A DNA stretch of 56,900 nucleotides from an uncultured Gammaproteobacteria bacterium. Its GTDB lineage: Bacteria; Patescibacteriota; Patescibacteriia; 2-01-FULL-39-33. The notes under the pieces are model-generated. The model made no database searches, was not told the DNA's origin, and worked only from the letters and a program-made list of their open reading frames with translations. Positions 541-48,384 of this stretch are shown here, one piece after another. The position numbers and the translations under genes are program-made. The stretch covers positions 1 through 56,900 of the forward strand of contig CAYGKC010000004.1 in assembly GCA_964350585.1 (NCBI GenBank). The letters run 5' to 3'. Positions within the stretch are counted from its first letter, which is position 1. Every line of letters starts with the position of its first letter.

Positions 541-942
541 ATGGCTAAAAATTATAACTACAGATTAATTTATGCAAGAGAAAGCTATACTCCCAGCGAA
601 ATAGCAAGGTTATTTAATTTAGACAAAAAGACAATTTTTAGGTGGGTTAAAGAAGGGCTGAGGCCTATTCAATTTCATACTAATCCCTTGTTAATAATGG
701 GGTCTGATTTAAAAGACTTTATCATGAAAAGGCGGAAAGCAAGGAGAAATTCTTTGAATAATGAGGAGTTTTATTGCTTTAAATGTAAAAAGGCGGTGAA
801 GAGCAAAGAAGATAAAATTTGTATTGTTCAATCAGATAAAACAATTGGCAAAAACAAGGCGAAACAATTGATTAAAACAGGGATTTGTGAATATTGTAAT
901 GGCAAAATTAATAAATATTTGAAGCTATATCAAAAAGATTGA
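541..942 (+). CDS. helix-turn-helix DNA-binding protein with C-terminal zinc ribbon (excisionase/regulator-like)
   Basis: SEIARLFNLDKKTIFRWVKEGL resembles an excisionase/MerR-type HTH. The C-terminus has CFKC...CEYC, four Cys. It sits directly upstream of a recombinase gene. Confidence 0.6.
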   Translation: MAKNYNYRLIYARESYTPSEIARLFNLDKKTIFRWVKEGLRPIQFHTNPLLIMGSDLKDFIMKRRKARRNSLNNEEFYCFKCKKAVKSKEDKICIVQSDKTIGKNKAKQLIKTGICEYCNGKINKYLKLYQKD

Positions 943-1005
943 TAGGTAATTCAGTTAGTCTCTTAAATGTCCACATAAAGCATATTAACTAATCGAAAGT
1001 GAAAT

Positions 1006-2124: not shown

Positions 2125-2254
2125 CGAGGAAAATTTGCAAAAATTTATTGAATTGTATTACAAAAAATATTCTGTTAAGTTAAGAAGACAGGAGGCTTTT
2201 GAATTATTTTCGCAATTGGTTAGGATGGTGAAAATTGCAAATTCTCCTATGTAG
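2117..2254 (+). CDS. small hypothetical ORF (45 aa) overlapping the integrase stop
   Basis: The ATG at 2117 overlaps the integrase stop. Translation: MISEENLQKFIELYYKKYSVKLRRQEAFELFSQLVRMVKIANSPM. Below the ORF-track length cutoff, with no motif support. Confidence 0.2.
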   Translation: MISEENLQKFIELYYKKYSVKLRRQEAFELFSQLVRMVKIANSPM

Positions 2255-2384
2255 GTTAATTTTACTAATCGCTAAATTTATGATATTATATAAATGCATA
2301 CACATTCATATTCAAAGCGTTTTTTTATTGGCCAGAAATGGGCAACTAACCGAAACCATTAAAGAATCGCTTTGATTTGATAAT

Positions 2385-4085: not shown

Positions 4086-4120
4086 CAGGCGGGTGCTCTA
4101 ACCAATTGAGCTACCAATCC
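4045..4120 (-). tRNA. tRNA-Asp (anticodon GTC)
   Basis: The reverse complement folds canonically: GGATTGG TA GCTC AATTGGTTA GAGC A CCCGC CTGTCAC GCGGG AGGTT GCGAG TTCAAGT CTCGT CCAGTCC G. No full CCA is encoded; the tail is GCA. Confidence 0.9.
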
Positions 4121-29119: not shown

Positions 29120-29575
29120 ATGAACTTACAAGAGCAAATTAACGCAGATTTTCTCCAAGCTTATAAGAATAAGGATGAAAAGTTGGTAATGACATTAAGA
29201 ATGATAAAATCGTCCTTGGTAAATAAGATGATTGAGAAAAAAATGGCTAAAGAAGAGATGTTAGAAGATAGTGAAATTATAGCAGTTATAAAATCTGAAA
29301 TAAAAAAAAGAAAAGATTCTATAGAAAGTTATAGTCAAGGTAACAGAAATGATTTGGCAGAAAAAGAACAAGAAGAAATTAATATTTTAGAAAAGTATTT
29401 GCCGGAACAGATGAGTGAAGACAGAATTAGGGAAGAAATAAAAAAAATATTGCAAGATAAAAATTTTACTTCTTCGGATTTTGGCAAAGCAATGGGAGCA
29501 GTTATGGCAAGTATTTCAGGGCAAGCAGATGGACAAATCGTTTCCATAATACTAAAAGAAGAACTATCTAAATAG
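29120..29575 (+). CDS. GatB/YqeY domain protein
   Basis: I..D...A.K.KD....TLRMIKS, plus EINILEKYLPEQMSE, typical of YqeY. Confidence 0.8.
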   Translation: MNLQEQINADFLQAYKNKDEKLVMTLRMIKSSLVNKMIEKKMAKEEMLEDSEIIAVIKSEIKKRKDSIESYSQGNRNDLAEKEQEEINILEKYLPEQMSEDRIREEIKKILQDKNFTSSDFGKAMGAVMASISGQADGQIVSIILKEELSK

Positions 29576-29583
29576 CTAATAAA

Positions 29584-29612
29584 AAATCCGCTTTAAGACA
29601 GCGGATTTTTTA
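29584..29612 (+). terminator. rho-independent terminator
   Basis: AATCCGCT-loop-AGCGGATT followed by TTTTTAT. Confidence 0.8.
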
Positions 29613-29647
29613 TTTTGCCATTTATTTATTTATCAACAGTTTGATGC

Positions 29648-29677
29648 TTGGAAGTTAAAGCGTAATTGTGTTATAAT
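29648..29677 (+). promoter_or_regulatory. candidate sigma70-type promoter of the giant-gene operon
   Basis: TTGGAA, an 18-nt spacer, then an extended -10 TGTTATAAT. It lies 33 nt upstream of ATG 29710. Confidence 0.35.
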
Positions 29678-29709
29678 TAATAACAAATACAATTTTTAAA
29701 ATCAAAATT

Positions 29710-32700
29710 ATGAATCAACGACGGCTCTTTTCCATGCAAAGGTCGTTAATTAATTTCTATGCTGTTTTCATCTTGCTGATGATTATAACGGTGATGTTTG
29801 TTTTATTTATACCTCACCAATCATTTGCCCAAACAGTAGCTGATGAAAACACCTCCGCTTTTGCTCAGTCGGCTGGAATAGAAACTGAAACATCTTTGGT
29901 TACCATTATCGGCAATATTGTCAGAGTTCTTTTAGCGCTTCTGGGTATCCTCCTTATTCTTTTGATAATGTACGGAGGATGGATTTGGATGCAGTCTCAG
30001 GGTGATCCCGCGAAAGTTGACAAGGGTAAAAAAATTATTACCAATGCAATTATTGGAGTTATTATTATTTCTCTTGCTTTTGCCATTACAACTTTTGTGA
30101 TGGGAATATTAAATGGTACTTTTGGCGGAGGCGGCAGAGGAAGAGGTCCGGTAATTCCCGGAGGTTACAATGATTGGAACCGTTCAATGATTGGCAAAGG
30201 ACCGATTGAAAGTGTCTATCCGACTCCTAATCAAAAAGATGTATTTATCGATACTTTGGTTGTTGTTACATTTAAACAAGAAATCCAAGCAGATACTATT
30301 TACGGAGCCAATGATAAGATTGTAAGCGATAACATTGAAATTTGTCAGGTTAACGCAGAAACATATGATTGCGTAGAAACAGACGATTTTAAAATAGAGG
30401 CCTTCAATGATACTACGGTAACGAGCACTATTGACAATAGGACTTTTGTCTTTTATCCAAATAAGCCGTTAGGTTTAAATGACGGATTGAAAAGAATTTT
30501 TAAAGTCAAATTAAAAAATGGAATAAAAAATATTTCCGGGGATAATATCTTTAAGGGAGGATATTACGAATGGGTTTTTGAAACAAACGGAAAACTTGAT
30601 TGGAATCCTCCAAAATTATTATTACGAGAAATTTATCCTGTTCCTGATGATTATGCAGATGAATATGGTGATTTAGCTGATCCTAATGCCGGAACAGCTT
30701 CCATAACTATGACCATAGCTGATATAACTCCCGAATTGCCACAAAGGATTGCAACAAGTTCGAACTTATTGTTATATAGAGGGCAACCTTTAAGTTTACC
30801 AATAACTCATGGAGATACTGGACAAATTCTTTATTTAAAAACTGATACGGGCTTTGAATTCAAAACATCAACTTTGACTAATGTTTCTGTTAATATAGTT
30901 TCCAATGGAACGCAAGCTACAGTTTCTTCACCTGATTTATTCGGTTTAGCAGAATCATCTTTACCATTGACTGATACTCAAACTCAATTGAGTTTCAAAA
31001 ACGGCCTTTATTTGCAAACAAGCGGAGGTCCTTTTCAAAAAGGTTTAACTTGGCAGTTTTGGGTAGCAGGCAATAGGGATGGAAAGACTTTTATTATAAA
31101 AAACGGCAATCAAGAATATAGATACCTTTTTGTTGACCAGACATATGACACAAGAAGCACATTATCCAAAAATAATGTTTCTTATCATACTGTTCTTGTG
31201 CCTACAAATTCAAGCTTGACAAATTCCGTTAGTGCTTTGGTGGACAAAATAAACGCGACAGCAGGAGAAGTTGTTGTGGCTTCTTCTTCGGAAGGCACTT
31301 TAAACCTTACTGCCAAATATGCCGGTTCAGCTTCCCAAAATATTGAGGTAGGAACAAGTACAAATTCCCTGACAAAGTTATTAGGAGGAACGGATACTTT
31401 TAAAGGAAGAAGTTTGGTAAGAGGTGCATTTGATCCGTATAACAATTCGCTATTTCAATTTACATTTGATAAGGCAATAAATCCCGTTACTATAGAAGGA
31501 ACTATTATTGTAAAATATGACACTAATGGAGACGGTGTGTTAGATGGAACTGTTCAGGCTTCAAGCTCTATTTCAAATCAGTATAGAACCATTACTTTAA
31601 GACCGCCGAATGTCTGTGGCGTAAACACTTGCGGAGATCCTATCTATTGTTGGATGGAAGTTGCTCCCGAAAATCCCACATCCACTAAATTTGAAATTGA
31701 AATTATTCCTGCTCCGCTTAGAACCTGTAATTCAAATTGGTGCGGCTCTGGAGATTCTAGTGTCGGTTTTGGCGGATCTTGCGAAACCGGTACCACAAAC
31801 AGATGTTTTAAAACAGTTGATGAGAAAAATGCTTTTTATCCGAAAGCGGAAGGCACAAGCGGAATAAGTGATTTATCAAATAATTCATTTAATGGTAATT
31901 TCAATGAATATGTCGATGTCAATGGGAAAACTTTAGGAATTGCAGAAGGTCCAAGTACTAGCACATGCGCTTCAACTGCAGGTTGTTCTGGTATGTCACC
32001 ATATGTTCTTACCACTACGACCAATGTTGTTGCGGGTACTAATACCGGAGATAATGTTAAGTGGAGTTTTTATCTTTCATCTGAAGTAGATACAAAGTCA
32101 CCGCTTATAAACAGAATTTTTCCTGTAGGTAATCAGGATTATGGAATTATTGAAGAAGAGTTGTCAAATAGGGAAGTGGAAGTGGAGTTTGACAGATTAA
32201 TGGATTCTTCTTCTTTTAAGCCGGGATGGGGGTATGGTACAAGTACGGGTAGTACATATTCTAAAAATTGGTATCAAAGATATTTTGTACTTCAGACTTT
32301 AAATAAGGGCGCAAATCCGATTGGTTATTGGATTTCAAAAACAGAAAGTCATGTAAATGGTGATAACGTTCCTGATCGAACCATAGCTTTGATTAAACAC
32401 AATAATTTTGATAATGCAGTGCAGTACGGTCCGCTAATTGGATCGGGAGCTAAGTCAATAACGCAAAATTGTTTTATGCCTGGGGGCGGACCAAGATATG
32501 CCGGCGCGGATGGTGATTTCAATACAGTAACGTCTTCTAATAATTGCATATATACATCTAACGCCAATAATAATTTAAATACTGACGGTTGCGTTAATGA
32601 TAGTATTATTGCTGAACAATACCGTGTTTTTAGCGATAACCCTGCATCTTATGCCCATATGAAATGCGATCAGATTGAAGGTGCTGAAGTATGCGATAAT

Positions 32701-32829
32701 ACTGAAACTTGTAAGCCGTTTTATTCTGCAGGAGACAATATGGCGGGAAGCTGGATAATATCTTCTGATTATGGCACTTCAACTGGAAACGAAAGAAGAA
32801 CTGGATGTTGTTTTGGTAAATGTGAATAA
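29710..32829 (+). CDS. giant secreted/anchored protein 1 (1039 aa): signal peptide + pilin-like two-helix module + Ig-like domains + Cys-rich C-terminus
   Basis: Uninterrupted 3.1-kb ORF. Signal peptide ends ..HQSFA|QT. The module at aa 51-134 is homologous to the N-terminus of the next gene. A Gly-rich linker GGGGRGRGPVIPGG follows. SbsA/Big_5-like strands occur (SVYPTPNQKDVFIDTLVVVTF.., INRIFPVGNQ..VEVEFDRLM). The tail is Cys-rich (..RTGCCFGKCE). Confidence 0.85.
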   Translation: MNQRRLFSMQRSLINFYAVFILLMIITVMFVLFIPHQSFAQTVADENTSAFAQSAGIETETSLVTIIGNIVRVLLALLGILLILLIMYGGWIWMQSQGDPAKVDKGKKIITNAIIGVIIISLAFAITTFVMGILNGTFGGGGRGRGPVIPGGYNDWNRSMIGKGPIESVYPTPNQKDVFIDTLVVVTFKQEIQADTIYGANDKIVSDNIEICQVNAETYDCVETDDFKIEAFNDTTVTSTIDNRTFVFYPNKPLGLNDGLKRIFKVKLKNGIKNISGDNIFKGGYYEWVFETNGKLDWNPPKLLLREIYPVPDDYADEYGDLADPNAGTASITMTIADITPELPQRIATSSNLLLYRGQPLSLPITHGDTGQILYLKTDTGFEFKTSTLTNVSVNIVSNGTQATVSSPDLFGLAESSLPLTDTQTQLSFKNGLYLQTSGGPFQKGLTWQFWVAGNRDGKTFIIKNGNQEYRYLFVDQTYDTRSTLSKNNVSYHTVLVPTNSSLTNSVSALVDKINATAGEVVVASSSEGTLNLTAKYAGSASQNIEVGTSTNSLTKLLGGTDTFKGRSLVRGAFDPYNNSLFQFTFDKAINPVTIEGTIIVKYDTNGDGVLDGTVQASSSISNQYRTITLRPPNVCGVNTCGDPIYCWMEVAPENPTSTKFEIEIIPAPLRTCNSNWCGSGDSSVGFGGSCETGTTNRCFKTVDEKNAFYPKAEGTSGISDLSNNSFNGNFNEYVDVNGKTLGIAEGPSTSTCASTAGCSGMSPYVLTTTTNVVAGTNTGDNVKWSFYLSSEVDTKSPLINRIFPVGNQDYGIIEEELSNREVEVEFDRLMDSSSFKPGWGYGTSTGSTYSKNWYQRYFVLQTLNKGANPIGYWISKTESHVNGDNVPDRTIALIKHNNFDNAVQYGPLIGSGAKSITQNCFMPGGGPRYAGADGDFNTVTSSNNCIYTSNANNNLNTDGCVNDSIIAEQYRVFSDNPASYAHMKCDQIEGAEVCDNTETCKPFYSAGDNMAGSWIISSDYGTSTGNERRTGCCFGKCE
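29860..30111 (+). other. VirB2/TrbC-like (T4SS-pilin-like) two-TM module, copy in giant protein 1
   Basis: AQSAGIETETSLVTIIGNIVRVLLALLGILLILLIMYGGWIWMQSQGDPAKVDKGKKIITNAIIGVIIISLAFAITTFVMGIL. Layout is helix 1, a G-x-x-x-x-S-x-GDP-x-K-V-x-K-x-K loop, then helix 2. Confidence 0.55.
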
Positions 32830-32846
32830 TAAAAAAGTTTAGACAA

Positions 32847-35800
32847 ATGGACTCTTCTCAAAATTTAAAAAATATAAGAAGGAGCGCACTATTTTTTGTA
32901 CTTTTTTTATTTCTTTGTTTTGTTTTTATTCCAAATTCAGTTTTAGCTCAAATAAATGTTTTTAGCGAAGCTGCCGGAATCAGTTCAGCGAGAACTTTAC
33001 CAGAAATTATAGGAAGAATTGTCCAAGTTGCCTTGGCATTTTTGGGTATTTTGGCAATTATCTTGATTATGTTCGCCGGCTTTAAGTATATGACTTCAGA
33101 CGGCGATCCTACAAAAGTGGAAAAGGCCAAAAAAATGATTATTCAGGCAGTAATCGGTCTTGTAATAATTTTTGCTTCTTTTGCAATAGTAACATTTATT
33201 TTTAGTAATCTTACAAATATAGTAGAGCCCGATGATAACTCGCTTTGCACTGTTGGTGATGTTCAGTATAGCGGTGTTGATAACTGCGCCTATAGATATT
33301 GCATCAGTGAAAACAGTTGGGGCCAATGGAATAATGATGGCTGTTATTACTATACTGCTAATCAATATTCATACGTGACCGGATTTAAAGATGAATCTCT
33401 TTTGATTAATGGTGTTATTTGGCAAATCGGTGTAACAAAAAGCTTTACCGGAGTAAAATCAATTCCCTTAAGCGCTAATTTGCAAGTTCGCGGATATGGT
33501 CATTATAAGGGAACTTCCAATGAAATTACCGCAATGAATTTAAGGTGGATAGACATTGCTTCAGGGTCAAGCGCTTTTTCTCCAATAGAAAATGTAATAA
33601 AAAATATTAATGGCAATGAGTTTAATGTTGTAGAAAATATTTACGCTCCTTGGAATACCTCGCAATATACAACTGGAACAACTTCCACTATTGACATTTT
33701 TTTAACTCCTCAAGACAGCAGTTATTTTTTTAAAAAATTAAAAGTGAAATTTATTCCCGATCATTGTTTTGACGGAATAAAGAATTTTGGAGAAACAGGC
33801 ATAGATTGCGGTTCTGTTTGCGGTGGAGCTTGTCCGGGAGAATCCTGTGATAATGAACCGTCAACTTCTTCTTGTCAGGCTAATGATAATATGTGCAGAT
33901 ACGGGGTTTGTAATTTAGATACCTGTAGTTGCATTGATGTTCCGCAGATTGATTACATTTCACCTGTACTTGATGTTTTGGGAGATACAAAATTAAATCG
34001 CCCAAATACCTGGAGTGATGATATACCAAACGGAGCTAACGGAAATTTGATTACTATATGGGGAAGCGGTTTTGGCAATTCAACCGGTACTGTAACATTT
34101 GTTGATAATGCCGGTAATTCTTATAATGCGGAATTTCCGGGAGCGCCATGTTCGAATCTTTGGTCGGAAAATCAAATAATTATTAAAGTTCCAAACACTC
34201 CAAATGTTATACCCGTTACCAGTACTTCTCAAATGCGATTCAACACTTCAACTAATTATTCTGTAAAAGTTAACTCAGTTTATGGCATTGAAAGTAATGG
34301 AAAGCCATTTCAGGTTAATCAAATTGAAAGACCGGGAATTTGTTCTGCAACAGCAGGATCTTATCCGGCTACAACCACAATATATGGTCTGAAGTTTCCT
34401 ACCGGAGCTACTAAAAATGTTCTTTGGTCTATTGGTTCTTATGTTAATGGAACATGGATAAACGGGCGTTTAACAGATGCTGTTTGGGCCCAAACTAATG
34501 TTACTAGCACTAGGTCATATGATTGGACAAATAATTCCGTGATCGATTATATTCCCGAAGCAAATTCGACAAATACTGCTAAGGTAAGAATTTTTAACGG
34601 AGCAGAATACAGTAACTATTACTCGTTTATTTTAAGCCGTGGAGGCGTTGGAGAAAGTTGCGGATATTACGATAATGCCTGCTCGGTAAATAATGGATTA
34701 TGTCAAAGCGGTTTGACTTGTGATTACAGCACTTGTTTATGTGAACCGATTCTGGGTACTTGTGTTCCAAATCAAGCCAGCACCACTTCTTGTACGGTTG
34801 CTAATCCGATTGCAAATTGCAGTTACAAATTCAGATGCAATTCAGCGGGAACGAGTTGGGATTGTGCGCCGGATCTGACTGATGCTGATTGTAGTATAAA
34901 TCCTTATACTACTTTTTCTAAACAAATTTTTTATGCATGGGCTTTTAACTCTTTGGGTTGGGGAAATATTGATCAAAGTTGCGGCATTGATCCTTGGGGA
35001 GCATGTGATCCAAGAGGATGCAACAGAGGACTTAGTTGTAATTTAGAAAGTTGTACATGTGTTCAGGCTCAAACATGTAAAAAAGGAGAGGTGAATCCAT
35101 GTACGATTGAAGGCGCTCCAAATCCAAACGGTACCTGTAAATGGCAAGAGGTATGTGGTAATGATGGAATTTTTGGTCAATGTCAATTAGTAGATCCTTT
35201 TTGTTATAATCCTGTACCGCAAGCCCAGCAGACAATGTATAGTTGGCTTTTTAATTTTAATGCCGGCAGTTTAGAAGGCAATCCCTACATTATTGAAAGT
35301 TGTTTATCAAATTGCAATGTAAGGATTCCAACACCTTCACCTTGGTATAAGTTACATATAACTAATGAAGTTGAGGGTTGGGCGACGAATAAGGGCATAG
35401 CAGCCGCCTACGCTCCGGCATGTTCCAATGCTTTGATCACAGCAGAATTTAACAGGAGAATGAATGCAAATACTATAAATAGTTCAACAGTAAAAATATA
35501 TCGTGTTTCTACTACTGGCGAAAAAATACCTTTAGATATCCAGATTAATCTGGAAAATGATAAGTTTCTCCAATTAAGCGTTGCTGAAGGATTGACGACT
35601 TCAACCGTTTATCAGGTAAACCTTTCTGATCAGATTTACAGTTATGAATATAAAAAATTAGTTTTTACGCCTAATTCGCAATTTGCCAAAGATAAAAGAG
35701 GCTGTGATGCTAACGCGGCTTATTGTTGGAATTTTACAACCAGAAACACATTACAACATTGTGAAGAAGGCTGTATCGGTTGCGCTCCAAATCCTACCAA

Positions 35801-38800
35801 AATGTATTGGCAAGGTGCTACAACATCTAATTTTTCTTACTTAACTAGTCAAGATAACTACTGTCTGACACTTAATACTTGGGATTACAATTGGCAATGG
35901 GATGTTTTACCTGGTCCGAGCAATCAATTAGGAGACTTAAGGTATAACAATTATATAGCTATTACTAACAAGGACTTCTGCGATAGTACGGCAACAACAA
36001 CTGAAAGATCAGATTTATGCCGTTTTCAATTGGCTGTAACTGATAATAAAGTTGATCCTTTTCAGGTTAGTGCTGCACTGGGCGACAATAGGCTTGGCCC
36101 TAATGCCACTATTACCGCTGCTATACCTGGAAAACCGCTAAGAGGTGAGTGTAAGGTGATAAATAATTTTACTGATGTAATGGTGGTCGAAGACAGAGAT
36201 TGTACTGATACCACTCAAAGTCCTTCGCCATTTAAAGGTGCAACAGACGCTTGCACAAATGCGCTTATTTCCGCCAGATTTAACAGGCCTATTGTGGATG
36301 AAACCTTAACTTTAAGCACATCAACACGAAACGGAAACATTATTATCGAAGATTGCGGTTCGACTGAACCAACTCCAACTTCTACATGTACGTTAGTAAA
36401 TCTTAATGAAGAAGGAATTACACCCACAATTAGAATTTTTGAATATAGCAGGCCTTTGGCATATGAAAATCTATTTACTTCATCCACTTCTGCTACTACC
36501 TCTTTGCCAGAAGGTTTTATAATTGATGTCGCTTTAAATCAAAAAATCAAATACAACGAAAAAAATGCAAAGACTATTATTGAAAGCGGATATCTCGATC
36601 CCAATAAATGGTACAGAGTTATTATTAAGGGAGGTGAAAACGGCTTGAGAGGTTCAAAGGCCGGCAGTGATAATCTTAAAGAAGGCCATTTAATTACGCC
36701 AAGCTTTGGCAATAATGGATGGGTTTACAATGGTGGAACTAATGCAAATCCACCATCTGAGTCTACTGATTCAGATGCCTATAAAGATTATTATTGGAAA
36801 TTTAAAACTGCAACCAGTACCTGCGAAGTTTCCTCGATAAATGTCCAGCCCAAAAACATATTTCTTTCCTTTATAGCGCAATTTCAACAGTACGATGCTG
36901 TTCCTCAGGCTGGAAATTGCAATGTTTTGGCAAGATGCTTTATAAATTGGGATTGGTGGTCTTTGGTTAATTATACCGATGAACATTCTTATCGTCCTCC
37001 GCATAGTGAATTAACAGAAACGGGAGCATCTATAGCCACTATTTCAAAAAATCCTTCAACGTTAAACGTTTGCGGAATTGTAGATAGTAATGGTACTGAT
37101 AATTTCAACTTAGTCGATCCTGTTCAAACTGCTGAATCAGTATCGGAAGGATCTGTTTTTATTACGGCAATGGCGCATGCTAATCGTGAAGGTTGGGCAA
37201 AACTCAGAGTAGGATCTGATTCATTTAGAGTTGTAAAGCATGGACCGGAGGACACTATGTGTACAAATCCGGATCTTGAAATTACTTTTTCCAGGGATGC
37301 AAGTTTAAATAATATCTATAACTATGTAAAATTATACGAGTGCACTGGTGACTCTAACTGTAATAATATTAGTAATGATCATTTAATTGATTTTGCTTGG
37401 TATAGGCCAAATGTAAATTATAGTAATAAAATAACTTTTGGAACAAATAATCTCGACGGTCGTTATCGAGTTATGGTTAATGGAATATCATCTTTTGATA
37501 ATTTATCTCTATCAGGTTTGAACTATAGATTAAATGGAGAGACTGTCGGCGAGGCTTGTGAACAAGGAATTTACCCTTGGATAAATAATGATCAAGCATA
37601 TTGCAGTTCAACAAATTGCTTGTTTGATTCCACAATGGATTTATGTGGCAAAGAATTTAAGCAGTGCACTACAACAGAATCAAATCTGATGGCTTATTGT
37701 TCGACAAATTGTAAAAATTTAGGAAACACAAATATTGCATCATGCGGAAATGGAATAATTGAGCCTGGAGAAGATTGTGACGATAACAATATTACCAGTG
37801 GCGATGGCTGTTCTTCAAACTGTTTACTTGTTGAAGGATCAAAAGCCGTTTGCGGTAACGGTAAAATAGAAAAAGGTGAGCAGTGTGATGATGGTAATTC
37901 TGCAAACGGCGATGGTTGCTCTTCCATATGTCTTTATGAATCAAATTATGCAACATCGACAAATTCAAATTCGTTGTATAAAGATTTTAATTGCGCAAGC
38001 AGTACTGGCGCTACAAGTACTATTGTTGTTGACATTGCTGGCAATGCTGTGAAGGTAAAAGTAGCTTGTATGGCAGGAGAACCGGGATGCAATAATAACT
38101 GTCTTAATCAAGGTTCAAATCCGAATGCTCCAGTTTGTGGCAATGGAAAAATAGAGTTTGGGGAAGACTGTGACTATGGAGTTAATAATGGCAACGGTAT
38201 TTGTTCGGATCAATGCTTATGGGTAGGTTCTTCTGAAGATACAGGTTGCGGAAACGGAACTTTGGACAGGGGTGAAGCGGATGCTTATTCATGGACTTTT
38301 ACGGTTGATCCTACTGCGCAAAGATGCGGTCCGGTTGTAGCTTTGAATCCATGCCAAACAGGCATATGGAGGGTATCTGTTCCAAAAAACATAGAAGATC
38401 TTCGCATTGTTATTGATAAGAAATATGAGACTGCTGATGATTTTGGTGAAAATGAATGCCAAATTATTGCACAAGGACCTCCTGATAACGCTTCTATATT
38501 CGTAAAAATTTGGTATAAGATAAAAGCTTTTGTAAAAAAATTTATAGGTTCAGCCACGGCATCAAATTATTTGTGTCTGATATATGATCGACAATTTACC
38601 TCCGAATTGATCCAAATGGACAAGGGTAACTACACTGCAACTTCCACTTTAGCAAATAATAATGGAATGATAAGCTTAGTAGCGTATGGCAATGATTCCG
38701 GAGAAAGGATTATAAATTTTATAAATGATCAAAATTGGTCAGACGGAGAAACTTATAGAATGAGGTTATTTGTGAATGGAAACTTCAGCATTCAATCAAC

Positions 38801-41800
38801 AACGACTATCTTTAGACAGGAAGATCAAAGATGCCAAATAAATAACGTAAAATCAGAAATTTGGCCCCTTGGTTGGGAAAGGAACAAAGATAATTTCTTT
38901 TGTAATGGGGATTATTGCGGTTCATTAACACCTGAACAAAAAGCCGATGATGATCAGAGTGCCAGTTGGAATAATGATTTTGATTTTAGTAATCAAAATA
39001 ATTTGCCTCGCAATCAGCACCTTTATAGATTTTGGGCTTATGGCAGTACAGGCTTTAGAGTTAAAGCAGATTTCAAAGAATTTAGATTTACTTATTTTGG
39101 TTTTGCAAATGAAGGTGGAACTTTAGTAAAATTAGACGATACGGAATTTTATCCGACATCTACTTATTCTACCACTACTTACAATGGAGCAAGATGGATT
39201 AACTCTGGTAATATTCAAGGTATGGATTTATACCATGCTTTAGCTTTTAATCCTGCTAATCCAGATGCTGGAACAATGGCTACGGGAACTGTAACTATTA
39301 ATACTTTTAACTGCGATAATCCATGGCCCGATCCTTCAAATTTCCCTTTTATTGATGGACAGGATAATTGTATTTCTAATGATGGCAGTGCTTGTCCAAA
39401 CACTAACTTTTCAACTTTTTACTGCCGTGATAATGGAAAAGTTTCAGCTTGTTGGAATGGAAGCAGTTATCTTAATGACTGTAAAACCAATAGTGATTGT
39501 CAGATTGGTGTTTGTCGACTTCATACCGAAGATGATTTGCCCTCAATAGGCGATTATGATGTCACAACGGAAGAGCTTAATGTTGCCATTTCCGGTATGC
39601 GAAAAGAACAGTGTAATAATTTACCTAATGAATTTTATCCAACAGTAGGGTATTTTGAGATAATAAATACAATTCAATCAGTACATCTATGGTCTGAAAA
39701 AGAATATTATAGATCAACCAGTAGCGGAAACACAAACTTGGGTTGGGAAAAGGTTTCTAGAGGAGAACTGGCGTTATTCGGCTTGCCAGGCAACTTTAAC
39801 CCTATAGCCGGTTATAATTTAGAAGGTAAAACATATTTATGGTCAAATGACGGAAATTTTTATTATAAAATTGACAGTGATCAAGTTTGGCGCAAGGGAA
39901 ATAGGAATGATTTGGTGGCACCAGGCTATCCGCTTAGTAAAAAACCGTTATTTGCTATAAGACGTTCTGATGATGTAATTATTTGGAATAGCGATCGTTC
40001 AGCTTATATTTTTAATGGGAGTTATACTGCTACTACTACAATAGTTTTGCCTAACGGTTTTGCACCTGTTACGGGCAATTTCTGCAGTAACTGTTTAAAT
40101 AATAATATTCATTTATGGGATAAGGAAGGTAACGGTTATGAATGTCCCAACAATCTAGCAATAACATCAAATTGCATTAAAATTGATAAAACTGCCAGAG
40201 GCTTAAGTGGAGTTAATCCCACAATGGGTTATTATGCAAATTTAATTGATAGTACAGTTACAATCTTATGGGATGGAGGAAATACTCATTACGTATACAA
40301 TTCAGTTACTGCAAGATTTGAAAAATCAACTACAAATGAGTCTGATTGTCAGACCAAGTTAAAAGAATTTTTATTTGTTAAAAATTATAGTAATTTAATA
40401 AATTCCTCTCATCCGGTTGTGTCTAAAAATGGTAATTTAGCAACATTTACGCCAGTAGCTAACACATGTACATCAATAGGAACTGATTTTATATATCAAT
40501 GCAGAGCCACTACTAACGGAAATCCTCTAGCGGAACCGATAATATTCAACATTACTGTAACTTCTACAGACATTTATAATTTATCACTTCTTACTTCGAA
40601 TAATAATGCAAGTGCTTCTGTTGCTTCTACTCCTCCCACCACTCAATATTGCGATATTGGAAACACAAATCCAATATGTTATGGTGATCATTCATGTTAT
40701 CGTGATGATGGAACAGGAGAAGAAAAAGTGTTCCAAGATATTATAATTTTTATAGATAATCAGACAGTTCCCGTTGATTATATTTCAGCATGGGCAAGCG
40801 CTCCGGATAATAAGCAATTGAATTATTCTAGACCGTTTTATTTAAGTCAAGGTGATCATACTATAACCTTAAAATGGGTAAATGATTGCAACTATAGTGC
40901 AAACGGACAATCTCCATATGTTTGGGATTCAAATTTGAAAATTTATAACTTGAGTTTATATCGCCAGAAAGAATATGATGAAGATGCAATCGGCATAAGG
41001 ATTATGTCAAATGATAATCATTATCCGGCCCTTACCTGGTACAGGAATACTTTTAATGTTTCTGGCAACCCTACTGCAAAAAGCGTTGATTCTTACAGGG
41101 CAATTACTGATGGCAGAACTGTTTACGTAAATGCTGCCAACACCTCAACTGATGATTCAATATATACCAACATATACTTAATGAGCAGGACGCAAGGCAA
41201 TAGTTCTGAGATGCAAAATATTTTCAATCAGATGGTTAATAATTGGACATTTAACTATAATTTTATTGACCAAGTTAATTTTAGCCAATGCTATGGAACT
41301 GGGTATAACTGTTTTAGTGACAAGGATTGTCCTACCAACAGTTATTGTCTTTCTCCAAAAGCAAAGTTGACCAGGGATGTTAAAAGAGTCGAAGACATTC
41401 ATCAGATGCAAGAAAAGCTCTTAGCTTATTATGATATTAAAAAATGCAGTAATGATCAAAGCCGAAGATGCTTAGATGATACAAACTGTTACGGCGGAGG
41501 CAGATGTTCAAATTTCTTCCCTGACATAAAGGCGGGAAGTTATATAACTGGCAAAACATATAGCGTATGGCCATCTTGGCAGGAAACATTAGGCAAGAGT
41601 CTTGGCAGTGTGATGGCTATTGATCCCATAAACAAACTTTATGGTTGTTCAGGCGATTATGATTCGACAACTTGCTGGAGTAATGAAAACAAGCAAATGT
41701 TAAGCCCTGATATCGATTCATCAGTCTATATTTACTTCGCTTATACTACTAATGGAGCAAACGCCAGATTTTATGCTAAAAGCGAATATGATCTTACGGG

Positions 41801-43637
41801 TGGAAATAAATGGAGACCTTATTGGCAACGGGTAAACGGCTTAAGATACAATCCATTTTATTCCGGTTGGGAAAATGTTATAGAACAAATGGCGTCTTCA
41901 GTTCTTCCCACTTGCGGAAATGGCACATTTAATACCGGCGAAAACTGTAGTAATTGTCCTTATGATGTTCCTTGCGCTGGAGTATGTAACGGTGGTACTT
42001 GTTTAGAGAATTGTGGTGATGGAACGAAACAAGCAGCGGAAGGGGAAGAATGTGATAAAGGTCCCAATGGTGGTTACGATGGAGCAAGATACTGCGCTTG
42101 GAATTGTAAATATGTAGCAAGTTGTGGAGATAGTAATATAGATCCCGGTGAACAGTGTGATGGAATTAATTTAGGCGGCAATACCTGTGAAACCGTTGTT
42201 CCGGGAACCTGTGATTATTCTGGTGCTACTCTTTCTTGTGATAGTAACTGCAGATTTAACGTTTCCCAGTGTAAAGTGCCTATATGGAATACTACTGCCT
42301 GGTCGCCAGCCACTTGTGGTCCAACTACACTATTTCAGATTAGAACTACTACTGCAGCTTTTTCCTATTCAAATCCAACTTGTTTATCTAATTCTCGCAC
42401 AAAGCCGATAGAAAAAAGATCTTGTAATTGTGATGTTGACTATGCGGCAGTATGTTCTGGTAAGTGTGGTATTATGATAGATAAATGTGCGGGGCAAATA
42501 GATTGTGGAAATAATTGTCTTACGGGTGGGGTTTGTGAATTACATAATTTATGCACTCCACTTGGCGAGTTACCTTGTCAGGGCTCTTATCAAACTATAA
42601 GTAGTGATAATACTAGATGCATTTGTGTGCCCGGAACATATTTTAACGGATCGGCATGTGTCTGCGAATCTTGGGCTTCTTGTTTAGCAACAGAGCCTGA
42701 GCCTACATGTACTGATCCTTTAGGATTAATTTCAAACAAGTGTTGCCAAGAAGGATATTATAGAAACACTTCAGGTGTCTGTGTTTTTGATACTTCAGTC
42801 TGTACTGATGTAAGTTGGGCGGAAACTTTAAATTCTGCACCTAATCCTTGCCCATGTTCTGGGACATATATAAGTAAGACATATAAATGTATAATGAATG
42901 GAGTGGAGGTGGATAGTTCAATTTGTGCAAATTGTAATATTTCAGCAATACCGGATGTAATTGCTTCTTGCAATCATTTTAATGATGGTTATTGTGATTC
43001 ATCCTGTACTGGTTCTCAGGCAGAGAATTTTAATAATGACAATAGCTGTCCTTTGAAAAATGGAGACTTGTTTACTCTAAAAACAAATGATGGCGGACAA
43101 TGGTTGCACATAGGAATTAACTACATAAATAACATCTATACTGATGGGCCGTTTAATAATAAAGGTTCGTTTAAATTTATTAGAAATGATGCACTTAATA
43201 ATGAAATAGAATATAGTATTCCACTAATTTTTTTCGGTATTGCAGCAGATGGAACGGAAAAACATTTAAGAACATATTCTAATTACGATTATTTATATAC
43301 TGATAAGCCTGCAATTAATGCAAGCAATCAAATTTATTTATTCACGCTCAATGGCGGCAATGGTATGTTAATGAGAGGATCGGTCTTTACTATTAGAGAA
43401 TTTGGCAGTAGGACAATTAAAGCAAAACTTAAAGATAATCGACCATATTTTGAATCTGGTAATCCGCTTGAGCTAACATTGTGTAATTATTCTGGTAATT
43501 GTGACTCCTTAATTGTATCAGCTGATTTTGAACCTAAAGTTGCAGGAGTGTTTGAAAAACAAGAGTCATCTATATTTGAAAAAATATTGAAATTCTTACT
43601 TAATCCATTTTATAATATATTAAAAATAATAAAATAA
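32847..43637 (+). CDS. giant secreted/anchored protein 2 (3596 aa): signal peptide + pilin-like module + IPT/Ig-like domains + cysteine-rich repeat arrays + 5-fold repeat region
   Basis: Uninterrupted 10.8-kb ORF starting 18 nt after the previous gene. Same N-terminal architecture as protein 1. An IPT/TIG-like segment is present ([28 protein letters not shown]). Y-x-W-x-F-x-T strand motifs recur. There are two arrays of CGNG..GE.CD.GN...GDGCS..C repeats and very many Cys residues. Confidence 0.9.
32958..33206 (+). other. VirB2/TrbC-like (T4SS-pilin-like) two-TM module, copy in giant protein 2
   Basis: [81 protein letters not shown] aligns residue for residue with 29860-30111. Confidence 0.55.
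33942..34200 (+). other. IPT/TIG-like Ig-fold domain in giant protein 2
   Basis: [12 protein letters not shown]...[47 protein letters not shown] follows the IPT pattern (P.I..isP..G...G...vtI.G.gFg.....V.f). Confidence 0.5.
37743..38280 (+). repeat. cysteine-rich repeat array 1 (Myxococcus-type CGNG..E.GE.CDDGN...GDGCS..C)
   Basis: [87 protein letters not shown], and [10 protein letters not shown]. Confidence 0.8.
39650..40320 (+). repeat. five tandem ~40-50-aa repeats (propeller-blade-like) in giant protein 2
   Basis: Each unit starts P-x-x-G and contains h-h-[LI]-W-[SND]-x3-5-Y: [59 protein letters not shown]. Confidence 0.6.
41913..42275 (+). repeat. cysteine-rich repeat array 2
   Basis: [15 protein letters not shown].., [34 protein letters not shown], and [30 protein letters not shown]. 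Confidence 0.75.
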
Positions 43638-43638
43638 A

Positions 43639-44457
43639 ATGTTTGATAATTTACAACAGCAAAATCCAACTCCGGGAGCTGATTTAGATAACCAAAATGC
43701 GCAACAGCCCCTACCTAAACCTGATATTTTTAAGCCCAAAGAACCTTCTACGGTGAATTTCAACACTCCACAACAACAAATTAACAATCCTAACCCTTCA
43801 GGAAGTGTCGAAGATATTTTTTCAAAGACAGATAATCCTTTTTCTCATGATCAGGGCGCAGCGGGAGGTTTTGCTCCATCATCTAATCCCAATATCAGTT
43901 ATAATAATGGAGGTGTTAAAAGATCAAGCTTAGCGGTCTTTTTAATTCCCGTGCTTGTTGTGGCTATAATTGCATTAATTGTAATTGGTTCTTGGTTGAT
44001 ATACGGCAAAATGCAAGAATCCTTCTTTAAGCAATCAAATCCTGTTGAGAATATGCAAAATATGGAAAATGAAGACTTTCTTTCACCGGTAAATAAAACC
44101 GAACCATTAGTTGAGACTCCCACGCCTCCTTTGCCTGAAGTTCAACCGGAAGAAATTCCTCAATCTGTTTTGGACGCTCAAGTTACTACTACTACTACTA
44201 CTACTACTACTACAGAAAACAGTAACGAAGAGATTGACACAGATCAAGACGGGTTAACCGACAGAGAAGAAAAACTTTTAGGTACAGATCCAAGAAATGC
44301 TGATACTGATGGCGATGGCTTAACAGATTATGCAGAAGTTAAAACATATAAAACTGATCCTTTAAATCCTGACACTGACGGAGACGGATTCAAAGACGGA
44401 GAAGAAGTAATTAATGGTTATGATCCCACAAAGACGGGAGGAGTCAAATTATATTAG
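43639..44457 (+). CDS. single-pass membrane protein with thrombospondin-type-3-like DxDxDG calcium-binding repeats
   Basis: The start is 1 nt after the giant-gene stop. Disordered Q/N/P-rich N-terminus, TM helix [25 protein letters not shown], a poly-Thr run, then [43 protein letters not shown]. Confidence 0.75.
44185..44211 (+). repeat. (ACT)9 trinucleotide microsatellite encoding poly-Thr
   Basis: Nine perfect ACT units followed by ACA give a run of 10 Thr. Confidence 0.95.
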
Positions 44458-44472
44458 GTAATTATAAAAAAT

Positions 44473-45492
44473 ATGGAATTAAATACCGTTGAACAAAACA
44501 CAGCGGCATCAAATACTTTGCCTCCGCAAAATATTTATGTGATGCCGGATAAATTTCAACCAAAAGAAAAAAAATCTTCTTTCTCTTCTTTTGTGGTGGC
44601 AATAATTCTTTTAATTATTGTGCTAGTAGCTGTTGGATCATATTTTGCATATGATTATTTTATTAAGGCGAAAAATAAAGATGTCAAAGAAACACCTGTC
44701 GATAACAGTGCAGTCGTGAATTTTCAGGAAGAGGAATTTTTAACTTTAGCTCCGCCTACCGAGGAAGAAATAGTTGAAGAAGTGCAGGAGCCGGCTACAA
44801 CTACTGAACCTGTAAAGGAAGAAGAAAATAAAGATGTGAAAGAAATATCACTTGTCCCTCCGGTTGAAAGTCCGGATACTGATAATGACGGTTTGACTGA
44901 TATTGAAGAGAATTTAATCGGCACTTCGCATTTGGACTCTGATACTGATAAAGACGGATTTAAAGATGGAGATGAAATAATTAGCGGTTATAATCCATTA
45001 ATCCCTGAATCATCGGAGAAAGCAAAATTGGAAAATGCTGATTTTCTAAGAATTGCAGTCACAGATTTTGCAGATGATAATTTTTCAATCCCTGTGATGA
45101 AAAAATGGTCCTTTTCAACAGTAAAGGCCACAAAACAAGCTATTATAACTACAGAAACCGGAGAAATAATTAAAATATCAGTAAAGGAAAACGCCGACAG
45201 AATATCGGCAATTGATTGGTATTTGAAGCTTAATCCTCAGGTTATGCCAGTACAGCTCAAACAAATAGAATACGGCAATCTTTCAGGCTTAATAGCGCCA
45301 GATAATCTTTCTGTATACTTTAGTGACAGTTTAAAAACAAAAATTTATAGTTTTGAATATATTATGGATGCAGGCTCACAACTCAGATATCCAAATATAG
45401 TAAAAATGATGATTAAGAAATTTACCTTGGTAAAATTGGCGCCAAACACGAACAACTCAACTAATACTTCATCAGAAGAAACTTTACCATAA
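44473..45492 (+). CDS. paralogous single-pass membrane protein with DxDxDG repeats plus C-terminal globular domain
   Basis: TM helix FVVAIILLIIVLVAVGSYFAY, an acidic linker, then DTDNDGLTDIEENLIGT..DSDTDKDGFKDGDEIISGYNP, the same ending as the previous ORF. Confidence 0.75.
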   Translation: MELNTVEQNTAASNTLPPQNIYVMPDKFQPKEKKSSFSSFVVAIILLIIVLVAVGSYFAYDYFIKAKNKDVKETPVDNSAVVNFQEEEFLTLAPPTEEEIVEEVQEPATTTEPVKEEENKDVKEISLVPPVESPDTDNDGLTDIEENLIGTSHLDSDTDKDGFKDGDEIISGYNPLIPESSEKAKLENADFLRIAVTDFADDNFSIPVMKKWSFSTVKATKQAIITTETGEIIKISVKENADRISAIDWYLKLNPQVMPVQLKQIEYGNLSGLIAPDNLSVYFSDSLKTKIYSFEYIMDAGSQLRYPNIVKMMIKKFTLVKLAPNTNNSTNTSSEETLP

Positions 45493-45495
45493 AAC

Positions 45496-45957
45496 ATGTC
45501 TGATTTTCAGTTCAATAATAATACCAAATATAAAGTTAGGCCTTTAATTTTAAAAAAAGTCAGCCACATTTTTTTTAAGGTTGCTAAATTAGGTTATGAA
45601 GCGGAGTATTCACTGGCTTTTGTTAAAGCTAAAGATATTAAAAAGTTAAATAAAATATACAGGAACAAAGATTCCGTGACGGATGTATTAAGTTTTGCCG
45701 AAGAGGATGATTTTATTGAGGCGCAGAAAGACAAAAAATATTTGGGTGAAATACTAATTTGTCCTACGAAAGCGAAAGATCAGGCAAAGGAATACGGCTG
45801 GAATTTTGAGAAGGAGATTATTCGACTTTTAATTCACGGCTTAAGCCATTTAATAGGATATGATCATGAAAATGTATCCAAAAAAAAAGCTGAAGAGATG
45901 TTTTCTTTCGAAAAAAAGCTTATGATTGCGGTAGATAAAATTTTAAATTGTAAATAG
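45496..45957 (+). CDS. ybeY: rRNA maturation endoribonuclease YbeY
   Basis: HGLSHLIGYDH zinc-binding motif (H-x3-H-x5-H). Typical size. Confidence 0.9.
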   Translation: MSDFQFNNNTKYKVRPLILKKVSHIFFKVAKLGYEAEYSLAFVKAKDIKKLNKIYRNKDSVTDVLSFAEEDDFIEAQKDKKYLGEILICPTKAKDQAKEYGWNFEKEIIRLLIHGLSHLIGYDHENVSKKKAEEMFSFEKKLMIAVDKILNCK

Positions 45958-47328: not shown

Positions 47329-48384
47329 ATGCCATCACAAAAAAAGAAAAATCCTATTAAAAAGGAAATTAAAAAAAAGATTGTTTTACCAAAGCGAAAA
47401 AATAATAAAGCCATTATAGCAGTAATTATTTTTTTGTTGATAGTGGCTGGAATTTTGTTTTTTGGTAATGTTAAAAATCGAACAAATAGTTTGCTCGACA
47501 CAGTAGAAAAGGACGATACTTATCAAATACCCTTGGGAATAAATTTAGATGATGGTAATAATTTAAATCCTTTTGAGGGTTGGACAGTTTTTAAAGACCA
47601 GGATAAAAAGTTCGGATTTTATTATCCTTCTGATTGGGTCATTGAATCAAAACTAAATAGTGTACAAATTTTTTATCCGGAAAGACCAGATGTGGTTGTT
47701 AACGCATCTTGGCAAAGCATAAAAAAAGATTTTAGTAACTATATTTCAGAGTCCGAAAAATCGATGCAAAAAACGGCTAACCAATTGAAAGACGAACAGA
47801 AATTTAAGCTAAATGATTTTGAGGCTGTTAAAAGATTTTATTATAGTTCCTCAACTGAGTCTGAGATGATAGCTACTTATATCTTTCACGATAAAACTGT
47901 TTTTGAAATTTATCTTTCAGCTCAAAAAATAGATGAGTCTTTGAAGTCAACGTATGATTTGATTTTATCAAGCTTTAACTTTAATATTTCATCTCCTTCT
48001 GTAGAAAATAAAGAAACTGTTTATAAAAATAGTTTATATGGTTTTGAATTGAAATATGGCGAAGAATATGTTAAGAAGGAAGTTAGTGAAGGAATAATAT
48101 TTGATTTCGGATCTGATTCTTATTTATCTGTCAAAGGAAGTACTTCTAAAATCCCTTCGCTTGTCGACTATCATCCTAGTGGCGCAAATGTGGCAGGGCA
48201 AGTAAAAATAGCCGAAAAGGGAGCCATGAAATACCTTTTACAAAAAGAAGATGGTGTAGCATATGTCCAGTACGTACTGCCTATTGATGAAAAAAGGTGG
48301 TTGCAAATAGAGTATGATGGAAAAGAAAAAGAGATAGCTAGTTTTGAAAAAATTATTTCCACTATTAATTTTTTAAAGAAATAA
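47329..48384 (+). CDS. hypothetical membrane-anchored protein inserted between ftsA and ftsZ
   Basis: Basic N-terminus, one TM helix (AIIAVIIFLLIVAGILFF), then two similar domains beginning FGFYYPSDWVIE and YGFELKYGEEYV. Confidence 0.6.
   Translation: MPSQKKKNPIKKEIKKKIVLPKRKNNKAIIAVIIFLLIVAGILFFGNVKNRTNSLLDTVEKDDTYQIPLGINLDDGNNLNPFEGWTVFKDQDKKFGFYYPSDWVIESKLNSVQIFYPERPDVVVNASWQSIKKDFSNYISESEKSMQKTANQLKDEQKFKLNDFEAVKRFYYSSSTESEMIATYIFHDKTVFEIYLSAQKIDESLKSTYDLILSSFNFNISSPSVENKETVYKNSLYGFELKYGEEYVKKEVSEGIIFDFGSDSYLSVKGSTSKIPSLVDYHPSGANVAGQVKIAEKGAMKYLLQKEDGVAYVQYVLPIDEKRWLQIEYDGKEKEIASFEKIISTINFLKK

Follow-up and report, generated by a model that had tools for sequence, protein, structure and literature searches.

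A 56,900-nucleotide stretch of DNA from a member of the Patescibacteria (contig CAYGKC010000004.1, positions 1 to 56,900, hereafter the window) contains a cassette of four consecutive genes, which we call A, B, C, and D. A and B encode modular VirB2-like pilins, in which a Sec signal peptide and a pilin module of ~75 amino acids (aa) are followed by an extracellular portion of very large size. The products of C and D are bitopic membrane proteins that combine a short cytoplasmic motif, a long linker, and extracellular thrombospondin type 3 (TSP3) repeats of the calcium-binding type. The same cassette is found in the core genome of many other Patescibacteria, and we consider it probable, although well short of assured, that its products are giant surface fibers for contact, which are anchored by their pilin modules and have C and D as membrane partners.

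The four genes were delineated by open reading frame (ORF) calls and by the families, hydropathy profiles, and homologues described below. Gene A (29710-32829) encodes a protein of 1039 aa, B (32847-43637) a protein of 3596 aa, C (43639-44457) a protein of 272 aa, and D (44473-45492), for which an alignment of five orthologues was used, a protein of 339 aa. All are on the forward strand, as are the features within and around them, and are separated by spacers of 17 nt (A-B), 1 nt (B-C), and 15 nt (C-D). The next gene in the same direction, 3 nt after D, is that of the endoribonuclease YbeY (45496-45957), which was identified by family PF02130 (E 6e-34) and synteny. These coordinates are exactly those reported in a first-pass annotation of the window, which had also noted a terminator and a candidate promoter upstream. 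Both were recovered. RNA folding and inspection of the sequence reveal a terminator-like hairpin of 15 bp followed by a U-run at 29578-29614, 3' of yqeY. Its folding energy is -16.6 kcal/mol (z = -6.3), which none of 200 shuffled sequences equaled, although it was missed by a simple terminator scan. This hairpin sets the cassette apart from the upstream genes in the genome of the window. It is followed by a candidate σ70-type promoter at 29648-29677 (TTGGAA-18-TATAAT with a TG extension), 33 nt 5' of gene A, which agrees with the consensus at 10 of 12 positions and was predicted by consensus match only. Because the terminator scan found no coding-strand terminator-like site between the cassette genes or between D and ybeY, and all spacers are short, the cassette and ybeY are probably co-transcribed.

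A and B share the organization of their N termini. In A, a signal peptide (aa 1-40) is followed by a T4SS_pilin hairpin (aa 60-134; 29887-30111), composed of a helix, a short basic loop, and a second helix, and then by a Gly-rich linker. In B, a signal peptide (aa 1-34) precedes a hairpin of the same type (aa 48-122; 32988-33212). As assessed by hydropathy analysis, both proteins have three N-terminal hydrophobic segments, corresponding to the signal peptide and the two helices, and none elsewhere, and AxA-like signal-peptide cleavage sites are conserved among the N termini of homologues. The Pfam family PF18895 (T4SS_pilin), with a gathering score of 26.6, scores 37.4 bits on A and 43.2-46.0 bits on B, where it covers aa 48-118. 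TrbC (PF04956) reaches 27.5 bits on B, just under its cut-off of 27.9, and the NCBIfam model NF045849, a pilin-like conjugal transfer protein of mycoplasma integrative and conjugative elements, matches both proteins. A custom hidden Markov model (HMM) built from 133 homologues scores 148 bits on the A module. A and B have no similarity outside the N-terminal ~130 residues, where 101 aligned aa are 48% identical (E 5e-23). An AlphaFold2 model of the B module, computed from an alignment of 35 sequences, shows two helices (residues 51-82 and 88-126) joined by a loop of five residues, with confidence (pLDDT) of 88-95. Across distant lineages, the module has a mean column identity of ~64%, with an invariant Gly/Met/Gly pattern and a conserved GDPxKVxKAKK loop.

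The relatives of this module are pilins. A profile of 81 columns found at least 3914 proteins in a collection of 5.8 billion proteins, and its top 120 matches are all stand-alone PF18895 pilins of 110-142 aa, 35-58% identical to the module of B, which originate from Uhr-, Magasanik-, and Buchananbacteria. Because of the Pfam scores and because stand-alone pilins are the best relatives, we assign the N terminus of A and B to the VirB2-like pilins of Patescibacteria as a true family member. The signal peptide, the conserved two-helix module, and its pilin-type nature, all of which had been proposed in the first-pass annotation, are thereby supported. A and B nevertheless miss the size of the small subunits (~100-150 aa) that is typical of PF18895 pilins. 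An exhaustive HMMER search of 1.84 billion cluster representatives identified 75,037 module matches with E <=1e-3, 22,872 of them with E <=1e-10. Among the matches listed, proteins with a single module carry it at aa ~40-140 and are 125-3481 aa long; as far as sequences go, a pilin module with a C-terminal extension of any size is a widespread architecture.

Other arrangements of the module were also seen. Many database proteins contain 2-17 copies in tandem in a single chain, for example a protein of 1775 aa with 17 such stretches; these may be real "polypilins," or else gene calling may have joined the genes of an array, perhaps in recoded lineages. Arrays of seven separate PF18895 genes, encoding proteins of 123-292 aa, are present in a genome of Buchananbacteria (locus L088, 383-4283) and in another member of the Patescibacteria (locus L089, 8134-12131), both near genes for a DUF2079 membrane protein and a GT2 glycosyltransferase. 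No VirB4 family was detected within 10 kb of either array.

Everything past residue ~130 of A and B is predicted to be extracellular because the signal peptide is followed by an out-in helix, the basic loop, and an in-out helix, an assignment that draws on the established Sec/VirB2 topology. The domain content (Big_5, a weak TIG match, DUF4215, and the 175 Cys of B) fits this placement. Of the Ig-like and IPT domains previously reported in these proteins, the Ig-like Big_5 domain (PF13205, cut-off 23.6) is above threshold in both A (aa 166-292, 24.9 bits) and B (aa 860-938, 35424-35660, 34.5 bits), whereas the TIG match in B is weak and below threshold (E 0.006). Similarly, the description of both proteins as extremely Cys-rich is accurate for B, which has 175 Cys (4.9%), but applies only modestly to A (20 Cys, 1.9%, with 18 of these past residue 636). 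The ectodomain of B, of ~3470 aa, is Cys-rich and non-repetitive, and BLAST detected no internal repeats. It contains Cys-rich acidic CGNG...GDGCS repeats at aa ~1620-1800 (37704-38246), which match TIGR02232 (myxo_disulf_rpt; 82.2 bits for a cut-off of 20.8) and, when scored on the segment, PF13948 (DUF4215; 31.2 bits for a cut-off of 27). A second cluster of this type is located at aa ~3020-3110, as judged by motif positions. Neither an LPxTG sorting signal nor an RTX (GGxGxD) motif is present in A or B, and no corresponding Pfam families match. Without these and without internal repeats, B is unlike the classical giant adhesins that are built from repeats. Comparison of A and B with the sequences in the PDB found no resemblance.

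When 131 giant homologues were mapped on B, four regions were found to be shared: the pilin module, aa 300-560, the DUF4215 repeats (aa 1600-1800), and aa 2700-3050. The last corresponds to what we term the signature region (aa ~2690-3010, ~320 aa; 40914-41876), which is found in 114 of the 131 homologues and was absent from A upon comparison. AlphaFold2 models it with a pLDDT of 70.8 and a predicted template modeling score (pTM) of 0.71, confidently over residues 20-320, as an α/β sub-domain followed by a long helix that packs on a β-sheet with Cys-rich inserts. The region has no Pfam match and no PDB match by profile, and Foldseek returned nothing below E 1e-3; its best structural matches, DcrB and SciW, have E values of 7e-3 to 5e-2 and cover only ~120 columns. 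Separately, the long helix on a sheet, together with the pattern RDxKRxxD..I....L..Y...YP...DPxN...Y.Y...LEY at aa ~2820-3010 (41301-41876), brought to mind the head domain of a type IV pilin or pseudopilin. Neither Pfam, run on 17 members of the region, nor the PDB profile search, nor Foldseek supports this idea, which was rejected.

C and D are much smaller proteins that share a bitopic design. C has a cytoplasmic N terminus with a conserved ...EDIFxxTD motif, a single transmembrane (TM) segment at aa ~98-122, as assessed by hydropathy and orthologue alignment, a linker rich in Pro, Glu, and Thr that includes a poly-Thr run, and three TSP3_bac repeats at aa ~199-262. In D, the cytoplasmic N terminus carries an invariant ...MPxKF motif. 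After the single TM segment (aa ~38-60) come an acidic linker and, at aa 135-175, two repeats of the TSP3 type; the protein ends in a conserved domain of ~115 aa (aa ~208-322; 45094-45438), whose profile has no match among PDB sequences. Family PF18884 (TSP3_bac, cut-off 25) scores 79.6 bits on C, in three stretches, and 29.6 bits on D. C and D were initially described as paralogous single-pass proteins with TSP3 repeats. The single pass and the repeats hold for both, but support for their paralogy is weak because they resemble each other (E 6e-15) in no part other than the TM segment and the TSP3 repeats. Several further observations concern C and its surroundings. The poly-Thr run in its extracellular linker is encoded by a perfect (ACT)10 microsatellite (44184-44213), possibly a slippage-prone site. 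At one related locus (L002), the C-type gene is split in two (138 and 127 aa). In several others, including L006 (19507-19968) and L007 (20021-20806), an extra small Cys-rich protein is encoded between the giant and the C-type gene; these proteins have ~150-300 aa and ~4% Cys, and sometimes contain TSP3 repeats.

Two lines of evidence link the products of the cassette to each other. The first is a domain common to B and D. An hhalign comparison of the first sub-domain of the B signature region (40914-41261) with the C-terminal domain of D revealed homology over 105 columns (probability 96.3%, E 1.9e-9), and B and D hence share their most conserved extracellular element. The second is the manner in which the hairpins of A and B evolve. 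In three of the five genomes compared (L002, L005, and L006), the A and B hairpins of the same genome are 70, 67, and 75% identical, whereas they are 40-55% identical to their counterparts in other genomes (the N-terminal parts concerned are at 29830-30111 and 32949-33212 in the window). The short, variable mature N-terminal tail co-varies too (up to 74%). This suggests either concerted evolution of the two modules through gene conversion or their co-evolution, neither of which would be expected for independent passive anchors.

The cassette is widely conserved. A has 12 full-length homologues (26-54% identity), all of which contain PF18895, and B has 213 homologues at E <1e-10, nearly all of which are 2000-5100 aa long and contain an N-terminal PF18895, together with varying sets of Big_5, TIG, DUF4215, LamG, VWA, and fn3 domains. 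In databases, these homologues are labeled "Ig-like," "IPT/TIG," "LamG-like," "DUF4215," or "pilin"; those most similar to the cassette proteins are assigned to Candidatus Buchananbacteria or "Patescibacteria group." Neighborhoods of homologues, read at decreasing similarity, display a common gene order wherever the contig or the read-out extends far enough: lytR, lepB, hisS, (rpsU), yqeY, A, B, one or two genes for TSP3 proteins, D, ybeY, (dgkA), ftsA, ftsZ. A-type pilin proteins of 531-1113 aa and B-type giants of 2241-4729 aa occupy the same positions in these relatives, and the order is kept in loci whose proteins are only 25-54% identical. The housekeeping locus is constant, and ybeY is the downstream boundary in all relatives examined.

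This synteny was also assessed at the level of species by scanning one genome per GTDB species with the D alignment and inspecting 10-kb flanks. In ~40 species-level genomes, a D-like gene is directly upstream of ybeY-ftsA-ftsZ, and in most of these it is preceded by a C-like gene and by a Cys-rich ORF (typically 4-6% Cys) whose frame continues without a stop to the limit of the 10-kb flank, which takes in up to ~3200 of its codons. The exceptions are a few loci cut by contig ends and one locus, L038 (labeled Saccharibacteria), that is without a giant ORF. The lineages concerned include Buchanan-, Uhr-, Magasanik-, Kerfeld-, Falkow-, and "Parcu"-bacteria, as well as others; many third-party annotation (TPA) records are labeled "Gammaproteobacteria," and are evidently mislabeled. 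The recurrence of the four-gene arrangement, on which the first-pass annotation had hinged, is therefore amply documented, and we conclude that the cassette is vertically inherited as part of the cell-envelope gene set of Patescibacteria.

As assessed by family scans of its ORFs, the window is housekeeping DNA of a reduced-genome bacterium with a low GC content. It encodes RelA/SpoT, TopA, DprA, Der, CCA-adding enzyme, LytR-CpsA-Psr, signal peptidase I, HisRS, YqeY (PF09424), YbeY, FtsA, FtsZ, NrdD/NrdG, a release factor, ComEC, ParA/ParB, IF3, SmpB with tmRNA, and several tRNAs. The arrangement rpsU-yqeY...ybeY-dgkA is an ancestral operon, as in Bacillus subtilis and other Firmicutes, so the cassette is inside a ribosome-biogenesis operon rather than in a mobile element or a secretion island. 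Giant surface genes thus appear to have been inserted into, and to be co-transcribed with, a ribosome-maturation operon (29120-45957 in the window; also L005-L007 and L090). In addition, lepB, encoding signal peptidase I, and a lytR-cpsA-psr gene are always found a few genes upstream of the cassette. Linkage to genes for a type IV secretion system (T4SS) or for type IV pilus ATPases, envisaged at the outset, was not observed, the cassette being placed instead in a housekeeping operon next to ftsA and ftsZ. T4SS families were found neither among 36 scanned ORFs of the window other than the four cassette genes nor in the DNA flanking the cassette at 10 related loci. The window contains no stand-alone small pilins either, the custom HMM finding only the A and B modules. 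A class III signal peptide or prepilin motif (G-F-T-L-I-E with a hydrophobic α1 N terminus) is absent from every frame of the window, and no T2SSG or N_methyl Pfam matches were found among the proteins scanned.

A few other features of the window deserve mention. Between ftsA and ftsZ, a gene at 47329-48384 encodes a single-pass membrane protein of 351 aa without a Pfam match. Genes for proteins of 265-379 aa occupy the same interval in the closest relatives (L002 and L003), and ftsA and ftsZ are adjacent in more distant ones. A relationship between this protein and D was considered, but comparison shows that the two are unrelated. At one end of the window (541-4120), genes for a helix-turn-helix protein (541-942), a tyrosine integrase (1006-2124), and a large serine recombinase (2385-4085) adjoin tRNA-Asp (4046-4120) in DNA with a GC content of 0.31-0.32, lower than in the rest of the window, which looks like the edge of an integrated mobile element. 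Finally, ARAGORN predicts a tRNA of undetermined identity at 20981-21055, just upstream of tRNA-Asn, with a two-base "anticodon (ag)" and an Rfam score of 48 bits; it may have an unusual anticodon loop or an intron.

How might the cassette proteins work together? In our preferred interpretation, the signal peptides of A and B would be cleaved and the hairpins would stay in the cytoplasmic membrane with their basic loop inside. The ectodomains would cross the wall as long, disulfide-stabilized fibers, reaching ~100 nm for B if extended, and would contact other cells, either a partner or a host, or a surface. As membrane-embedded partners, C and D would bind or organize these fibers through the shared domain and Ca2+. 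The A and B hairpins would not be passive anchors but would interact, either with one another or with a common machinery. The concerted evolution of A and B, the domain shared by B and D, the tight gaps, and the single candidate promoter all point to a functional coupling of the cassette genes. As suggested in the first-pass annotation, the fibers may be adhesins or tethers, may be organized by the calcium-repeat proteins, and may serve an episymbiotic lifestyle.

Several points weigh against this interpretation. Foldseek searches of the PDB with the hairpin model returned generic α-hairpins only, with no match at E <1e-3 and no T4SS pilin in the top 50; since generic helical hairpins were all that was returned, this comparison is uninformative in either direction. 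The sequence profile of the module likewise found no PDB chain, solved T4SS pilins included. About half of B (aa ~1900-3596) is without a Pfam match. VirB4, VirB6, VirD4, and type IV pilus genes are missing from the 56.9-kb window, and T4SS loci in the ABY1 group are found with comF, recG, and radA (PMC12102498). Adhesion is deduced from domain types, and the putative role of C and D from synteny and one profile-profile match. Moreover, the housekeeping placement next to ftsA and ftsZ could point to a structural envelope role or to one related to division.

The most serious competing explanation, which we regard as possible but rather unlikely, is that A and B co-polymerize with the small pilins of the arrays and so serve as minor or "tip" subunits in a pilus of the T4SS type. 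The T4SS of Patescibacteria would extract the hairpins from the membrane, and the pilus would display giant adhesive modules, making it the T4SS counterpart of modular type IV pilins. The hairpins of A and B are indeed indistinguishable at the profile level from stand-alone pilins of the same lineage, and are as conserved as these, including in their GDPxKVxKAKK loop. Their evolution in concert also speaks for this explanation. In pili made of VirB2/TraA-type pilins, the subunit termini point outward, so that any extension at the C terminus would be exposed. Related genomes do encode potential partners, i.e. the arrays of seven small PF18895 proteins, whose sizes grade from 123 to 292 aa, and in Southlakia both the T4SS and the pilin array are essential (PMC10633639). 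However, the cassette adjoins T4SS genes in none of the loci examined, and a subunit of 75 aa that carries 3470 further residues is difficult to accommodate sterically except at the tip or at very low stoichiometry. In addition, a T4SS pilus has so far been demonstrated in no monoderm (PMC12857230), and the hairpin found no structural match among solved pilins. A bolder version, to which we give somewhat less credence still, is that the T4SS of monoderm Patescibacteria builds the A and B hairpins and the small array pilins into a filament with adhesive, disulfide-rich arms of ~100 nm on its tip or shaft, for which C and D provide a membrane platform via the domain common to B and D. If true, this would explain the expansion of the pilin family, with its tens of thousands of members, in these bacteria, as well as the purpose of their enigmatic, essential T4SS, and A and B would be the first "modular conjugative-type pilins."

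Alternatively, the hairpin might be a passive, generic membrane anchor, and the cassette might form a structural component associated with the envelope or with division, such as a surface layer or a wall spacer, rather than mediate host contact. This would account for a module that, among the matches listed, heads proteins of every length from 125 to 3481 aa, and for the position of the cassette in the core genome, between yqeY and ybeY and near lytR, lepB, ftsA, and ftsZ in all lineages examined, which suggests constitutive housekeeping expression. It would equally agree with the absence of T4SS genes nearby. We nevertheless find it improbable. A passive anchor is unlikely to keep ~64% column identity, an invariant Gly/Met/Gly pattern, and a conserved loop, and is unlikely to evolve in concert between A and B, while the ectodomains diverge and shuffle fast, with LamG, VWA, fn3, and TIG varying from one homologue to the next, behavior that one would sooner associate with interaction surfaces than with a structural layer. 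Last, the idea that chimeric assembly, gene fusion, or pseudogene decay produced the giant ORFs as artefacts, for which we found nothing beyond the general caution that metagenomes may contain mis-joined repeats, can safely be set aside, because the identical 3596-aa B protein is recorded on two contigs from two sources, independent assemblies contain orthologues of 2241-4729 aa at the same position, and B is an uninterrupted frame of 10.8 kb in DNA with 36% GC, without DNA tandem repeats (the only ones in the cassette being the (ACT)10 of C) or internal protein repeats, and with the GC and base composition of the rest of the window.

Pilin-anchored contact fibers thus remain our preferred reading of the cassette, which is of interest for several reasons. 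Patescibacteria account for much of the diversity of bacteria and spend their lives attached to other cells, and their contact molecules are almost unknown outside Saccharibacteria. Their VirB2-like pilins are puzzling, since the T4SSs of monoderms are normally without pilins and an array is nevertheless essential in the only species for which this has been tested. The largest proteins encoded in these genomes begin with the very same pilin module, in a cassette that is fixed in the core genome across a whole group of lineages, and these giants are accompanied by two dedicated partners, one of which shares a domain with a giant protein. The cassette is therefore a concrete candidate for how ultra-small cells of the Patescibacteria, or candidate phyla radiation (CPR), build their contact surface, and it offers defined targets (the hairpin, the signature domain, and D) with which one can find out if the "pilin" module acts as a subunit of filaments or as a specialized anchor.

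The individual parts of this system are known (PMC12102498, PMC10633639, PMC8080830), but their combination and its conservation are apparently undescribed. In the full-text literature that we searched, which omits most subscription journals, neither pilin-fused giant proteins nor a cassette of this kind is described; the original statement that no described system has this composition accordingly agrees with that literature, even though it does not extend to the components. The closest relatives are the VirB2/TrbC-like pilins of Patescibacteria (PF18895), with which A and B share a signal peptide and a helix-loop-helix module. In these bacteria, pilin arrays of 2-11 genes have been described (Quinonero-Coronel et al., PMC12102498), and, as in such arrays (PMC12102498, PMC10633639), more than one divergent copy of the module is found side by side in the cassette. 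Unlike these pilins, A and B are 8-30 times longer, have large ectodomains after helix 2, belong to a housekeeping locus, not to a T4SS cluster or an array, and come with two TSP3 membrane partners. The survey papers, among them the T4SS survey that used PF18895, make no mention of fusions.

Among very large surface proteins, the giant adhesins, such as a 7651-aa LPXTG protein of Mobiluncus (PMC10619420) and the RTX protein SiiE, which is exported by a type I secretion system (PMC6272769), are also extracellular, partly built from Ig-like domains, and linked to calcium-binding elements. A and B differ from them in having no LPxTG, RTX motif, or tandem repeats, and in their N-terminal pilin hairpin anchor. 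Furthermore, the cassette proteins are heavily disulfide-rich, are encoded in the core genome, and have dedicated TSP3 partners. Another parallel is the CPR predator Vampirococcus lugosii, a bacterium with a reduced genome, as is the source of the cassette, for which giant predicted membrane proteins of 1400-4200 aa have been reported, proposed to form a fibrous surface and to bind the host (PMC8080830). It belongs to another CPR lineage, the domains named in the main text of its description are WD40, PKD, saposin, and integrin, and a pilin module, a conserved cassette, and TSP3 partners are all missing from that text (PMC8080830). As for C and D, they have in common with CglD and MtsD of Myxococcus (NF033765 and NF047639) bacterial TSP3 repeats of the calcium-binding type. 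The matches concern the repeats only (40 and 17 bits, for cut-offs of 400 and 800), and C and D are small bitopic proteins, whereas CglD and MtsD are lipoproteins of 650-1100 aa.

In concept, a precedent is provided by the modular type IV pilins PilB and PilC of Streptococcus sanguinis (PMC8179133, PMC9934059), whose build lets a filament or a membrane anchor present a binding domain. The pilins of the cassette belong to a different superfamily and have no class III signal peptide or prepilin motif, their incorporation into filaments is hypothetical, and the part grafted onto the pilin module is up to ~3470 aa long, as compared with one domain in PilB and PilC. The design is nonetheless the same in both systems, i.e. 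an adhesive module, putative in the case of A and B, that is placed C-terminal to a pilin module.

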